A stretch of 64,000 nucleotides of DNA from Candidatus Gastranaerophilales bacterium. GTDB lineage: Bacteria > Cyanobacteriota > Vampirovibrionia > Gastranaerophilales > Gastranaerophilaceae. A program made the translations under genes and the position numbers. The notes below the pieces were generated by a model. It was given only the letters and a program-made list of their open reading frames with translations. It ran no database searches and had not been told where the DNA came from. The stretch is from the NCBI GenBank assembly GCA_947857085.1, contig CANUDF010000001.1, positions 3,841 through 67,840 on the forward strand. Reading direction: 5' to 3'. Of this stretch, positions 2 to 43,592 are shown in pieces (position 1 is the first letter of the stretch; each line of letters opens with the position of its first letter).

Positions 2-610
2 CCGACTTTAATTTCCAACTATCAAAAAAAGCAATTGAAATCGCAGCTTATGAAAACTTATTCCGTTTTAAAACAGGCTATTGACATGGAGTATGCACAA
101 AACGGCGTTGCTCTCGGATACAGTTATAATATTCAGCCGGAAAATAAGCTCAAGGATGCTCTAATGAGAAATTTAAAAGTTGCTAAAGACTGCAATAATC
201 ATGACTGTCTGCATTATACACAAGTGTCTGGCAATCCCTATAAAATAGAGCAATATAAAATTTTTAGTAAAAAAAAGAATATAGAAACAAGTTATTTTGA
301 TGACGGGCAGTTTATTTTACAAGATGGCACGCTTATTATGCTCGAAAGAGATTACTTAAATAATCCAGACTTTATACTTATCTCCGCTGACATAAATGGC
401 TTGGAAAAAGGGCCAAACGTGTGGGGACAGGATTTGTTTACTTTTGAATTAACCGACAAAGGACTTTTGCCGAGCGGTGCAGAAGGAACACATTTCGAAC
501 TGGAGAAAAATCCTGACTTATGCAGTGATACATCATCTAATGTTAAAAATGGAATTGCTTGTACTGAACGTGCATTGTATGATAAAGACTTTTGGGACAA
601 TTTGCCGTAA
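2..610 (+). CDS. Prepilin-type (type IV pilin/pseudopilin-like) protein, 5' end cut by window edge
   Basis: The frame of ORF 35..610 stays open back to nt 2 and reads PTLISNYQKK. This matches the end of the N-terminal prepilin helix seen intact in 53574..54326 (TIPTLISN). The C-terminal DINGLEKGPNVWGQDLFTF block resembles the xDxNG blocks of the other pilin-like ORFs here. Confidence 0.6.
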   Translation, partial: PTLISNYQKKQLKSQLMKTYSVLKQAIDMEYAQNGVALGYSYNIQPENKLKDALMRNLKVAKDCNNHDCLHYTQVSGNPYKIEQYKIFSKKKNIETSYFDDGQFILQDGTLIMLERDYLNNPDFILISADINGLEKGPNVWGQDLFTFELTDKGLLPSGAEGTHFELEKNPDLCSDTSSNVKNGIACTERALYDKDFWDNLP

Positions 611-668
611 CTCTTGACAAAGTATTAAAAATAATATTTAATAAAATGAGAAACGGAGGATTAATATT

Positions 669-1846
669 ATGAAAAAGACTTCTACAAAAGCGGTTCAGAT
701 AGTTACCCCCCCCCGAATTCCCCTCCGGACGCGGTTTTTACAAGATTTAACAAATTAAAAGAAAGCATTTATAATTCTAACGTTATAAATTACAAATCAG
801 GATTTACTTTATCTGAAATTCTTGTAACAATAACAATTATTGGTATTGTTGCAGTAATGGTAATTCCAACTTTGGTAAAGGAATACCAGCAAAAAGCCTG
901 GGATGAAAGTTCACGAGTATTTGAAATAAAACTTGGACAAGCTCTTCAAGTAATGAATACAGAACAAACACTCGCAGGTTATACAAAGACTGAAGATTTT
1001 GTGAATGAACTAAACAAGCATTTTAAAATAACAAAAATATGTCATGCTGATGACTTAAGAGAGTGTTTTGAAGATACAGTATTTTGGGGCGGAGGCGAGG
1101 TTGAACCCGCGGAGGTTGATATGACCTCAATAAAAACATCTAAAAATTTCGGACTTGAAGATTGGGATACAGAAGTTATAGGGGTTCAGTTTTCAAATGG
1201 AACAAATGGAGTTATTGCGTATAATCCGGAGTGCATCCAGAACCCTTACAGCAATCAAATAATAAATATATCTAAAGAAGGGAAGTTAGGTACTAGCTGC
1301 ATTGCATTATTATATGATACTACTGCATATAAAATGCCGAACGAAAGTGGAAAAGACCTGAGAAGCATTAACATTTTAAAACTTTCTAAAACTTGCTCTT
1401 TTGAATTAAACGGCAAATGTTACAGCCAGGCTTTTTTGCCCTCTCCTATGAGCAAAGCTGAATGCGAAAGAGAAAAAGATAGACTAGGTATCAAAGAATG
1501 CAATGATAATGATGATGTTTGGGCTGGAGCAGTCAAAAAATGCGGCGGGGTTAATAAAATGCCTACAATGGCAGAAATAAATGATTTAGCTAAGTATCTT
1601 TATAACACGAATAATATTAGCGAAGACTTTAGTGTAATAGATAAAAATCTAAAATTAGATACCGAAAAAGCTGCGGAATTAGGTTTTTCTCTAGATTCAA
1701 GCAGTTTTAATAATTATTTTGCAGTTTGGTCCGGAGAAGAATTAAATGATGAAACCACAACTGGCAGGGCATTTACTGACACTCAGACAAATGCAGCATA
1801 TGGATACAGGGGCCAAGCAAGCTGGCAGGCAATATGTATGGAGTAA
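669..1846 (+). CDS. Prepilin-type N-terminal cleavage/methylation domain protein, frame interrupted at a C9 tract (uninterrupted body 857..1846)
   Basis: GGAGG (655..659) lies 9 nt before ATG 669. The frame of 857..1846 is open back to 665 and encodes KSG/FTLSEILVTITIIGIVAVMVIPTL (G-1, E+5), but it has no start codon of its own. The ATG 669 frame joins it only if C9 were C10. Confidence 0.6.
706..714 (+). repeat. Poly-C homopolymer (9 C) inside the 5' leader of a pilin-like gene
   Basis: Counted directly: ttaCCCCCCCCCgaattc. Such a tract is unexpected in AT-rich DNA. Confidence 0.9.
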
Positions 1847-2013
1847 AACAACAACAGCAATGTGATTTCTACGTCAGGCTTTGCAATACTCGCAATGACA
1901 TTTAGTTCTGACGGTAATTGTTTCCGCGACAATAGCGGAGCTGAAGGCGGGAGCGTCGTCGAGGAAATAATTACCGTCAGAACTCCGCGAAACTTTTGTC
2001 CTGCCTCAGGCAG

Positions 2014-2772
2014 TTATACTTCCTGCAACACACCGGTGGTGTTAAATTTTCTCGAAGAATGACCGTTTATATATTCTTTTAAAAGCTCAAAACAAACTGT
2101 ACAGACTTTTTCGGTTGCTTTTTGTTCATATTCTGATTTGTAATCAAAATCAAATTGAACAAGCGCATTCAAAAAGTCTCTTATTTTATAATGCATCATT
2201 GTTTTCAAATGCAGTGTTTCATTGCATTTTTCACAGACAACTCCACCCATACGTGATGAAAAATACATGTTTTCATCACCAATCGGTTCGCGGCAGCAAA
2301 GACAGCTTTCCAACTCAATACCAAAGCCTGAAATCTGCATTATTTTTAGTTGAAACTTTATAACTGCAATAAGAATCTCTTCTTTTGTTTCCGCATCGGA
2401 AATCTTGTCCAACGCCTTATATAAAAGCTCGTAAATCTCTTTTGAACACGGGTCATCCTCAACGCCAAAGTTACTTACAACCTCTGAAATATACATGGAA
2501 TAAAAAATTTTATCCATATCACGGCGGGTTTTATTAAAAGTATTCAAAACATCTGCCTGACAAATACGGTCTAAATTTCTCCCCTTATAAAGCATAAGTT
2601 TGTTTGCAACAAGCAAATCCATGCGCGCTCCGAGCTTACTTTTAGGCTTTTTTACACCTTTTGCAACACATTTTATAAGCCCTTTATCTTTGGAATACAT
2701 AACAATAATCTTATCAGCTTCAGATAAGTTATATGATTTAAGATTTATAGCATCAGTTACAAAATTATTCAT
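2014..2772 (-). CDS. recO: DNA repair protein RecO
   Basis: 252 aa. The N-terminal OB-fold-like segment (AINLKSYNLSEADKIIVMYSKDKGLIKCVAKGVKKPKSKLG) and the C-terminal Cys cluster (CLCC..C..C) are typical of RecO. Confidence 0.8.
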   Translation of the reverse strand: MNNFVTDAINLKSYNLSEADKIIVMYSKDKGLIKCVAKGVKKPKSKLGARMDLLVANKLMLYKGRNLDRICQADVLNTFNKTRRDMDKIFYSMYISEVVSNFGVEDDPCSKEIYELLYKALDKISDAETKEEILIAVIKFQLKIMQISGFGIELESCLCCREPIGDENMYFSSRMGGVVCEKCNETLHLKTMMHYKIRDFLNALVQFDFDYKSEYEQKATEKVCTVCFELLKEYINGHSSRKFNTTGVLQEV

Positions 2773-3869
2773 TATTTATCCATGCCTGTACCATAGAATA
2801 CGCCGCGAATCATCTGTTTTAACTCGTTTTTGTTACTTGAAGCAAGCAATGCCGCATCTTCTGTAATGTCCCCACGCTGCAACATGCTGTATAAGGACAT
2901 ATTCAAAGTCAACATATTGTTGAAAGACCCCTTTTTAACTAAATCGTAAATTTGTTCCATTTCATTTTTTTCAATAAAATCTTTTATGGTTGAAGTAACC
3001 ACAAGAATTTCACAAGCAGGACGTCTTCCATTACCGCTTGCAAGCGGAACAAGTTTTTGAGAAACTGTCCCCCTTAAAATTTCTGCAAGCTGATTTCTCA
3101 CAAAAGGCCTATCAGCAGGCGTGTACATATTAATAATCCTATTTACAGTCTGAATTGCATTATTTGTATGAATGGTTGCAAAAACAAGGTGACCCGTCTC
3201 AGCAGCCTTTAATGCATTACTTATTGTATCCCTGTCTCTGATTTCACCAATAAAGATTACATCAGGATCCTGTCTCAAAGCATATTTTATACCATCAGAA
3301 TAAGAGGGAGTATCTACTAATAATTGTCGCTGCGATATAATGGATTTTTTATTATTAAAAATAAATTCAACCGGATCTTCAATTGTAATAATATGTTTTT
3401 GATAATTTGAATTAATATGGTCAAGTATAGAAGCCATTGTAGTTGACTTACCTGACCCGGTAGGTCCTGTTACCAGCACCAGTCCGTTATCCATCTCAGT
3501 AAATTGATTTATTGCATCAGGAAGATACAACTCCGGAAGCTTTTTAATAGCATAAGGAATAGTTCTTATAACAACTGCATATTTTGCAAGCTGCCTTGAC
3601 ACATTTACCCTGAACCTGGCAATACCTTTTATTTCATATGCAAAATCAACATCAAGCATTGACGAAATATTATCTTTTAAATGCAAAGGAGCTAATTCCA
3701 TACAGGCATTGAACACATCATTATCTGTAAGCGGAGGCATGTCGATTTTAATTATCCTGCCGTCACGTCTTACTGATGGATGTTCTCCGACATGAATATG
3801 TACATCAGAAGCCCCTATAGATACAGCCTGTTTCAAAAAGTCAACAATATTGAAAATCTTTTCTCCCAT
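2772..3869 (-). CDS. pilT: Type IV pilus twitching-motility ATPase PilT
   Basis: 365 aa. It has Walker A GPTGSGKSTT, the IITIEDPVEF motif, and GHLVFATIHTN (PilT/GspE family signatures). Confidence 0.85.
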   Translation of the reverse strand: MGEKIFNIVDFLKQAVSIGASDVHIHVGEHPSVRRDGRIIKIDMPPLTDNDVFNACMELAPLHLKDNISSMLDVDFAYEIKGIARFRVNVSRQLAKYAVVIRTIPYAIKKLPELYLPDAINQFTEMDNGLVLVTGPTGSGKSTTMASILDHINSNYQKHIITIEDPVEFIFNNKKSIISQRQLLVDTPSYSDGIKYALRQDPDVIFIGEIRDRDTISNALKAAETGHLVFATIHTNNAIQTVNRIINMYTPADRPFVRNQLAEILRGTVSQKLVPLASGNGRRPACEILVVTSTIKDFIEKNEMEQIYDLVKKGSFNNMLTLNMSLYSMLQRGDITEDAALLASSNKNELKQMIRGVFYGTGMDK

Positions 3870-42717: not shown

Positions 42718-43592
42718 CTAAAATATTTTTATTGGTTTTTTAACAATCATTCTACAGTCTTTCACCATATCTTTGCAAATGTCATCCTGTAAAATTGCCC
42801 CGCAGTATTTTTGGCTCTTAATATAGCCGCTAATACATGCAGCACGATGATAATCAGCATCGGTTATTAGTAATCTTTCTTCTCGATTTTCACCGCTATA
42901 ATAATCATAAAGTACATTTACACTTATAAGGTTATTATAATTTTTCCCATCTTGTGCACCTTTTTTATATCCGGTTATGATTTTCCCTGATTTTAACTTG
43001 TAAAAAGGATAAACATCATCCCACAGTTTTCCTGCACCCAAAGTTCCATTTATGTCAATATATAATATATATCCTGTTCTATCATCTTCATTTTCTGCAT
43101 CTGATAAGTCATCTATTTCTCCATAATCGGAACCTATATATAGTTTTAAGCCATTAGTAAAAACTATATGCGGATTTATATCAAAAACACCTGATTTTGC
43201 ATATGCAGTAACTGTATTCGGTGTAATATTACAATTCTTTTCTGAAATATTAAAATGTTCAGAAATTTGTTCACAAAGCTTCATTGCCGAATCTGCTGCA
43301 ATTTTTTGGCTGTCTGTTTGACTTTCACAACTTTTATCCTGATTTTCAATATCTAAAATGCATTCTTCATACATGCTGTCAAATAAAATATCCTGTGAAA
43401 TATTTTTCACAATGTTATATCCAATATAATAGGCTGTAGAATCAATTTTTTTAATTTTACTTTGAGTTATTGGAAAAGTAATGCATAAAATTAACGAAAT
43501 AACTGTAAATACAGTTACAAGCTCGCCTAGTGTAAATGCTTGCTGAGAGTGGTTTGTATACTGCCCCCCCCCCTGTGACCTAATTTGTTCAT
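42718..43592 (-). CDS. Prepilin-type protein, frame interrupted at a G10 tract (uninterrupted body 42718..43410/43563)
   Basis: AAAGGAG lies 5 nt before ATG 43592 (MNKLGHRGGG). The body frame is open from 43563 and encodes QQA/FTLGELVTVFTVISLIL with E+5. The two frames join only if G10 were G11. The YIDINGTLG block resembles the other pilin-like ORFs. Confidence 0.6.
43564..43573 (-). repeat. Poly-G (minus strand) homopolymer, 10 nt, in the 5' leader of a pilin-like gene
   Basis: Counted directly on the plus strand: ctgCCCCCCCCCCtgtgacc. Confidence 0.9.

Follow-up and report, generated by a model that had tools for sequence, protein, structure and literature searches.

A poly-C tract in the leader of a type IV pilin-like gene of a gut Gastranaerophilales bacterium is probably a slipped-strand switch, one of about 90 G/C tracts in the genome

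The pilC1 and pilC2 genes of Neisseria gonorrhoeae and N. meningitidis reportedly carry a poly-G tract in the region coding for the signal peptide, an observation credited to Jonsson et al. in 1991. In the opa family of Neisseria, 11 to 12 paralogues have CTCTT repeats in the part coding for the leader peptide; these paralogues switch independently and give combinatorial surfaces. In Campylobacter jejuni, about 30 poly-G/C tracts lie in unrelated glycosylation, capsule, and flagellar genes (PMC6321876, PMC8355987), and the predicted set of phase-variable genes (the phasome) of N. meningitidis comprises 115 genes (PMC5084427). Bifidobacterium breve UCC2003, a gut commensal, has an intragenic G tract in sortase-dependent pilus loci, for which replication slippage was shown; the out-of-frame length is the majority state, and the in-frame length is enriched in vivo (PMC9187656). 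Here we describe a locus at positions 669 to 1846 of a 64,000-nucleotide stretch of the genome of a “Candidatus Gastranaerophilales” bacterium (the window, C1:3841-67840 of an assembly of 1.75 Mb in 88 contigs; window G+C content, 33%; C1, C38, and the like before a colon denote contigs of the assembly). We consider it likely that this locus is a single type IV pilin-like gene and a slipped-strand contingency locus, with a poly-C tract in a leader that would be cleaved off, and that it is OFF in this assembly.

A preliminary description of the window proposed that a strong Shine-Dalgarno (SD) sequence and ATG 669 open a frame that enters a run of nine C residues and soon stops and that the pilin body continues with no start codon of its own. 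Both proposals are borne out by the coordinates (Table 1). ATG 669 is the only strong start for the short frame, and the C9 run, at codons 13 to 15 of that frame, is the sole C or G run of 9 in its region. The pilin frame is open from 665 to 1846, shows no stop or second frameshift in 376 codons, and carries ...NYKSG/FTLSEILVTITIIGIVAVMVIPTL (the slash marks the predicted cleavage site). A scan of this frame found no ATG, GTG, or TTG ahead of ATG 857. An added C (C10) fuses the two frames into one of 392 amino acids, whereas C9 gives 29 amino acids and then a stop. The length of the fused product had been given correctly in the preliminary description, but its joined sequence had not: the junction reads ...IVTPPPNSPP, with three prolines rather than four. 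The body was placed there in the +1 frame; in ribosomal terms it lies in the −1 frame of the ATG. The promoter-like pair upstream was not returned by a consensus scan, since its second hexamer lacks an A at position 2. The arrangement is conserved ahead of paralogous class-A genes; the motif occurs upstream of L029 and L003.

We determined tract lengths in contigs of the same species from other samples. These were fetched by exact match to neighboring housekeeping proteins (recO, SDR, HPF, isochorismatase, dCMP deaminase, and ThyX), an approach that is unbiased as to phase and that superseded look-ups by the OFF-state open reading frame (ORF), which are biased toward OFF alleles. Among eight assemblies, the target tract was C9 in five (the window included), C8 in one, and C10 in one, and the remaining assembly had an in-frame C11 variant; the gene was out of frame in six of the eight and in frame in two samples. 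The C11 variant, from ERR10422994, reads GTT followed by C11, i.e., an A-to-C change plus one extra C. Flanks of 120 to 140 nt were identical across samples, save for this A-to-C change abutting the tract. The slipped-strand switching that the preliminary description put forward is supported by these length differences between independent assemblies of one species, and the second tract of the window was likewise found as both G9 and G10. Over nine loci sampled, five varied in length between samples (the target, the second window locus, C38:12183, C36:2816, and C29:23374), and out-of-frame alleles were mostly exactly one base below the in-frame length. Two of the nine loci, sampled via the OFF-state ORF and consequently OFF biased, were G10 in 5 of 5 and C9 in 8 of 9, the ninth having an interrupted tract. 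Because the constant loci show that homopolymer calls are reproducible at the contig level, the variation at the other five is most simply real.

Table 1. Features of the pilin-like locus, the second window locus, and G/C tracts compared between samples
Feature	Position	Strand	Details
Promoter-like TTGACA (614-619), 17 nt, TTTAAT (637-642)	614..642	+	Upstream of SD; putative, read from sequence
Shine-Dalgarno GGAGG	655..659	+	9 nt before ATG 669
ATG 669 frame	669..758	+	29 aa, MKKTSTKAVQIVTPPRIPLRTRFLQDLTN; TAA 756-758; product of C9 (OFF) allele
C9 homopolymer, putative switch	706..714	+	C10 (or C7/C13) links ATG 669 to pilin frame
Leader linker, pilin frame	716..799	+	28 codons, no stop; would be discarded at G/F cleavage
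Internal promoter-like module TTAACA-17-TATAAT	747..775	+	11/12 consensus matches
Gly(-1) plus mature pilin-like protein FTLSEILVTITIIGIVAVMVIPTL...	800..1846	+	TAA 1844-1846; from motif and predicted helix
ORF reported by gene callers for OFF allele (P0001)	857..1846	+	329 aa; Met inside pilin transmembrane helix
G10 tract, second pilin-like gene	43564..43573	-	ATG 43590-43592; body 42718-43563; in frame at G11
Target tract between samples, via recO	706..714	+	In frame at C10; this genome C9; C9 in ERR4191853, ERR4191866, SRR30170047; C8 in SRR24164647; C10, in frame, in SRR20950875; C11 variant in ERR10422994
Second window locus between samples	43564..43573	-	In frame at G11; this genome G10; others G10, G9; one contig ends at tract
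Tract between samples	C38:12183		In frame at G10; this genome G10, in frame; others G10, G9, G9
Tract between samples	C36:2816		In frame at G11; this genome G11, in frame; others G10, G10
Tract between samples	C29:23374		In frame at G15 with this genome's flank, at G11 with others' flank; this genome G15, in frame; others G10, G12
Tract between samples	C2:59532		In frame at G10; this genome G9; G9 in 5/5
Tract between samples	C21:20899		In frame at G10; this genome G9; G9 in 4/4

At C29:23374-23388, the tract is G15 followed by AGAAAAAAACT in this genome and G10 or G12 followed by CAGTAAAAAACT in two other samples; the G15 reflects either an exceptionally long expansion accompanied by changes in the flank or a local fault in the assembly. 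At the locus equivalent to C46:11038, one sample (L091, SRR14630145) has the interrupted tract CCTCCCCCC in place of C9, an interruption that would stabilize the tract and lock the upstream frame OFF.

That a C9 run is improbable by chance in such AT-rich DNA, as the preliminary description argued, was confirmed by a census of the whole assembly: G/C runs of ≥9 numbered 89, against 0.4 to 0.7 expected (mode, 9), and the window contained 2, against about 0.01 to 0.03. Runs of ≥8 numbered 95 in the 1.75-Mb genome. At about 54 tracts per Mb, this is, to our knowledge, a denser phasome than that of Neisseria or Campylobacter. The lengths of C runs were bimodal (C5, 156; C6, 18; C7, 2; C8, 4; C9, 30; C10, 14; C11, 10), and the long runs are hence a separate population, not the tail of the base composition. 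The scale exceeds that estimated in the preliminary description, since the target is one of about 90 tracts in the genome.

Nearly all the long runs sit 15 to 41 nt 3′ of a strong SD sequence and start codon. Counted after virtual frame correction, at least 65 tracts (a lower bound) lead via an open linker of 6 to 90 codons into [GA]/FT[LI]xE and a hydrophobic helix, i.e., the N terminus of a prepilin. The shared module consists of an SD sequence, an ATG, 5 to 13 codons, a G or C run, an open linker, and G/FTLAE. About 96 prepilin-like N termini are present in the genome; a tract lies no more than 400 nt upstream of 67 of them, about 8 are at contig starts, and about 18 have ordinary short MKKG/F leaders and no tract. 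Many G9 or longer runs were found in 12 of 12 genomes of the same genus, with nearly none in other families of the order. In G026, another species of the genus (398 kb), G9 or C9 needing one more base dominates, with a few in frame at G10 or C10, and the same picture emerged for 26 loci in three “Candidatus Gastranaerophilales” metagenome-assembled genomes (MAGs) from other assemblers. The best reading of these data is that a phasome of tract-leader pilins is genus-wide in gut Gastranaerophilales.

Outside the pilin-like set, about 10 long G/C tracts occur within or ahead of other genes (C41:13081 [C11], C49:9807 [C12], C43:6952 [G9], C33:2949, C49:12581, C63:1779, and C7:31513/37750/39110). 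In some cases the tract lies within a long ORF and keeps its frame; in one case, a membrane-protein-like ORF of 613 amino acids has an out-of-frame tract at its start. These tracts are further candidates for phase variation.

The leaders fall into recurrent classes at the nucleotide level: MK.I.TKAVQ.VT-PPP (poly-C), which includes the target and its upstream paralogue; M.......GGG-ASPLSR, with poly-G followed by CGTCTCCTCTAAGTAG; MGANTHYHYFASRGGGG; and a G10-CAG class. The linkers of 65 paralogues (2,064 codons) contain no stop in the pilin frame; the two remaining frames together have 400 (0.097 per codon; P, ~1e-91). We concluded that selection preserves a potential common reading frame for the pilin and its upstream ATG, although most copies are now out of phase. 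Over all 65 genes, 45 need one more base, 11 are in frame, and 9 need one base fewer; for the 44 genes without an internal Met near the cleavage site, the corresponding numbers are 35, 6, and 3. A universal rule that ON equals G10 was rejected, since the in-frame length is C10 or G10 in two leader classes and G11 in a third. In other public assemblies, in-frame leader-plus-pilin genes have been called as single full-length proteins, e.g., P0013, MKMITTKAVQIVAPPP...FAFTLAEV (MKMITTKAVQIVAPPPIHPWLLDFGRLDKF...FAFTLAEV).

The sequence CGTCTCCTCTAAGTAG is conserved at the nucleotide level after most poly-G tracts (e.g., C2:59532 and C36:9962). A 7-bp pairing with a 4-nt loop is predicted between the G tract and the CUCCUCU 3′ of it; CUCCUCU resembles an anti-Shine-Dalgarno sequence and is absent from poly-C leaders. 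This local pairing is the sole recurrent RNA element of the leaders. As a general feature, RNA structure acting as a frameshift stimulator or as an SD-sequestering hairpin was rejected, because 60 leaders, folded and compared with dinucleotide shuffles, showed no unusual stability (mean z, 0.2).

A decaying paralogue fixed out of frame, i.e., a plain pseudogene, would be in keeping with the out-of-frame state of most of the assemblies, with the loss of the internal ATG (ATA at 785) and the weakened internal −35, and with a family so large (45 paralogues in this genome at an E value of ≤1e-20) that redundancy is plausible. However, all 376 codons have remained free of stops and second frameshifts, the protein body is identical in all samples (100% over the 329-amino-acid ORF), and two samples carry in-frame alleles. 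Moreover, the only lesion occupies the very site at which 64 other intact genes carry theirs. A fixed pseudogene, which the preliminary description had listed as a possible outcome, is therefore extremely improbable.

The preliminary description also raised the prospect of a systematic undercall, by which the true tract would be C10 everywhere and the short-read consensus would miss a base. In its favor, Illumina quality drops at G runs, most tracts need one more base, and the ends of at least 10 contigs in the assembly coincide with a tract or lie no more than 40 nt from one. Against it, independent assemblies from several studies gave four tract lengths (C8, C9, C10, and C11) at the target, with C9 itself recurring in five, and a constant G9 at two control loci (9 of 9). 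One class of tracts exceeds the in-frame length by a base instead of falling short of it, the 11 in-frame genes are so at G8, G9, G10, G11, and G15, and MAGs of other species built with SPAdes and MEGAHIT show the same pattern. General miscalling of homopolymers was rejected, since 117 of 121 A/T runs of ≥8 lie in intact ORFs, leaving 4 frameshift-like cases. We find an assembly or sequencing artifact hardly credible, the least probable of the explanations considered.

Contig boundaries that coincide with a G/C tract, or are no more than 40 nt from one, include those at C3:1, C13:34163, C15:1, C31:34, C36:20082, C44:28, C45:31, C69:33, C75:6284, and C76:19. Many Logan contigs likewise stop at G/C tracts. 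These breaks could be due to the repeated leader sequence, to heterogeneity of the tracts, or to both.

The excess of genes that are one base short invites a different explanation, programmed recoding at the RNA level. In this scenario, the short allele would be the normal one, and pilin would be made constitutively at a low level, by base addition by RNA polymerase or by a ribosomal −1 slip on C_CCC_CCC or G_GGG_GGG, with DNA changes being secondary. A run of 9 is the length of the RNA:DNA hybrid and contains a perfect slippery heptamer. In 69% of members (the 45 of 65 that need exactly one base, equivalent to a −1 ribosomal shift), a slippery homopolymer is followed by an ORF in the −1 frame; the bias is stronger (35:6:3) among genes without an internal Met, and it recurs in other species. 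All 9 assemblies sampled at two class-B loci have G9, the zero frame terminates 1 to 13 codons from the tract, and every OFF gene keeps an intact body. In contrast, in-frame and +1 members also exist, and the state varies between samples: in-frame DNA alleles occur at the target and three other loci, alternating with OFF alleles. The in-frame length differs between tract classes, one class is a base too long, and the 60 folded leaders revealed no stimulatory structure. In addition, the analogous tract of B. breve is explained by replication slippage rather than transcriptional slippage (PMC9187656). We judge recoding as the main route improbable. A two-tier arrangement, in which the one-base-short state is a selected ground state, RNA polymerase or −1 ribosomal slips let product trickle from about 45 silent genes, and DNA slippage locks a few fully ON, is doubtful; if true, no larger set of genes whose expression depends on homopolymer recoding would be known from any single bacterium.

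A further route would bypass the tract. The internal promoter-like module at 747 to 775 might drive expression of the pilin body alone from a leaderless or short-leader mRNA, with the upstream SD, ATG, and tract forming a separate regulatory small ORF. This module has 11 of 12 consensus matches, an exact TTGACA-N16-18-TAWAAT stands at the equivalent position in 13 paralogues, and in 21 a Met precedes G/F by 4 to 14 residues. Paralogues carry TTGACA-17-TATAAT, 9 nt, and then ATG, and in a 78%-identical relative the same arrangement leads into ATG-THKSA/FTLSE. In the target, by contrast, the codon at 785-787 that corresponds to the ATG of the short MxxKSG/F leader in the paralogues and in this relative is ATA, and the first possible start, at 857, lies inside the transmembrane helix. 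Furthermore, 44 of the 65 genes lack an internal Met altogether, and the linker is open in every gene, which makes sense only if it is translated from upstream. We consider this route very unlikely. Independent internal expression could plausibly operate in paralogues that have retained an ATG 9 nt after the module but not in the target.

In many leaders, the exact TTGACA-17-TATAAT reads (F/L)DK..YN in translation and is followed after 9 nt by ATG-xxKSG/F or by GGAGG-N5-ATG (e.g., L034, 61-101). The combination of TTGACA-17-TATAAT and ATG would give these leaders a second start for the pilin, one that does not depend on the tract.

The predicted product resembles members of the type IV pilin/type II secretion pseudopilin superfamily with a class III signal peptide. 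KSG/FTLSEILVTITIIGIVAVMVIPTL has the G(−1)/F(+1)xxxE(+5) cleavage-methylation motif and a hydrophobic stretch and matches PF07963 (27.9 bits; cutoff, 21.2) and TIGR02532 (25; cutoff, 16.3). An AlphaFold (AF2) model built from 61 homologues (pLDDT, 85.6) predicts a long N-terminal helix at residues 4 to 54, followed by two cysteine-rich alpha/beta regions. The C-terminal ~300 residues (the head) had no match in Pfam or NCBIfam, and a Foldseek search of the PDB gave no significant fold match (best E value, 0.24), with a weak partial match to the C-terminal domain of Bdellovibrio Bd2740. A prepilin peptidase gene (PF01478) is present at C42:2804-3196, and a PilT-type ATPase gene (PF00437) adjoins the locus at window positions 2772-3869. 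The family numbers up to 76 paralogues in relatives. Searches of other species yielded no clear orthologue (best interspecies identity, 58 to 59%; one Logan contig, 78%). With the best cross-species identity below 60%, the family appears to diversify quickly. The genome encodes MutS, MutS2, and MutL, and loss of mismatch repair was rejected on that basis as a cause of tract instability.

We propose the following mechanism for the slipped-strand switch. The expression signals (the promoter-like motif, GGAGG, and ATG 669) would be constant and strong, and slipped-strand mispairing at replication would alter the length of the tract. With C10, a ribosome would read a leader of 44 residues directly into G/FTLSE; the prepilin peptidase of the genome would remove this leader, and the mature protein of 348 residues could join a pilus or pseudopilus. 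With C9, as in this assembly, or with C8, translation would end after 29 residues and no pilin would be made. Reversible switching within a population would then allow a lineage, with the module at the head of at least 65 of about 96 pilin-like genes, to express a limited and changing part of its very large repertoire. The ~90 tract switches probably let the cell vary its surface, on which the pilins would be displayed, and host immunity, phage, or changing ligands may be the selective agent.

Several observations weigh against this mechanism. The leader from ATG 669 would have 44 residues (25 to 100 in paralogues), far more than in characterized pilins, and it is not the short basic leader of about 5 to 30 residues. 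The presence of MutS and MutL is unlike the situation in Campylobacter or Helicobacter; Neisseria and Haemophilus also possess both. Contigs report the majority allele of each sample only, and the in-frame allele of ERR10422994 is only 10 nt from a contig end. Four of the nine loci (two sampled without bias, two OFF biased) were constant in length between samples. Finally, the frame states (45, 11, and 9) are far from random and are not predicted by simple symmetric switching. The excess of genes one base short and the invariant loci could reflect contraction-biased slippage with selection against expression or, alternatively, leaky slippage at the RNA level.

The design of the locus is repeated nearby. 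The preliminary description had pointed to a second pilin-like gene of the same kind at 42718 to 43592, and this gene, on the minus strand, indeed has a G10 tract and is in frame only at G11. Directly upstream of the target is a tandem paralogue whose 3′ end lies at window positions 2-610 and whose leader is identical over the first 38 nt; its own C9 tract (C1:3625-3633, just outside the window) also needs one more base. Just 3′ of the target gene, at window positions 1862-2062, is a palindromic REP/MITE-like element, GACGGTAATT...AATTACCGTC, one frame of which reads CFRDNSGAEGGSVVEEIITVRTP. This and other elements (CHCEGAKRLSQSH and AITTQTTFARND) are inserted in frame in many leaders of paralogous pilin genes, leaving the ORFs unbroken.

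Gut Melainabacteria (Gastranaerophilales) are uncultured. In the paper library searched, no report tied phase variation or poly-G tracts to Melainabacteria or Gastranaerophilales. Pilin-like proteins account for about 4 to 5% of the genes of this organism, and most would be silent at any one time. Such a large, mostly silent, switchable repertoire suggests that the cell surface is under very strong pressure to diversify. Because gene callers shorten such genes (the database entry for the target starts in the transmembrane helix), the pilin repertoires of this lineage are systematically misannotated in MAGs.

By analogy, the proposed mechanism matches those of Neisseria pilC and opa, the Campylobacter phasome, and the B. 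breve pilus G tract. As in pilC, a G/C homopolymer lies a few codons after the start in a leader that would be removed, one base would toggle a pilus-associated protein, and the expression signals stay constant. Unlike the two pilC genes, at least 65 genes are involved here, with modular leaders of 25 to 100 amino acids, and gating would act on the pilin-like subunits, which have predicted class III signal peptides, and not on a Sec-exported tip adhesin such as PilC. The likeness to opa is that of a surface multigene family with a repeat of its own in the leader coding region of each copy; the differences are a homopolymer rather than a pentamer, pilins rather than outer membrane beta-barrels, and a family 5 to 8 times larger in a smaller genome. 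As in C. jejuni, the genome is AT rich, and G/C runs of 8 to 12 (mode, 9), many of them intragenic, are strongly overrepresented and are concentrated in genes for surface structures. Unlike in C. jejuni, which has no MutS/MutL, the ~95 tracts occur mostly in one family, at one fixed position, in a 1.75-Mb genome with MutS/MutL, and most of the genes are one base short of the in-frame length. B. breve is also a gut commensal with pilus genes broken by a G tract and with an out-of-frame majority, but there are two loci there, the pili are sortase dependent (Gram positive), and the tract lies outside any cleaved leader. What is remarkable in this organism is the scale, the restriction to one protein family, the long, modular, disposable leader, and a default state that is OFF by a single base.

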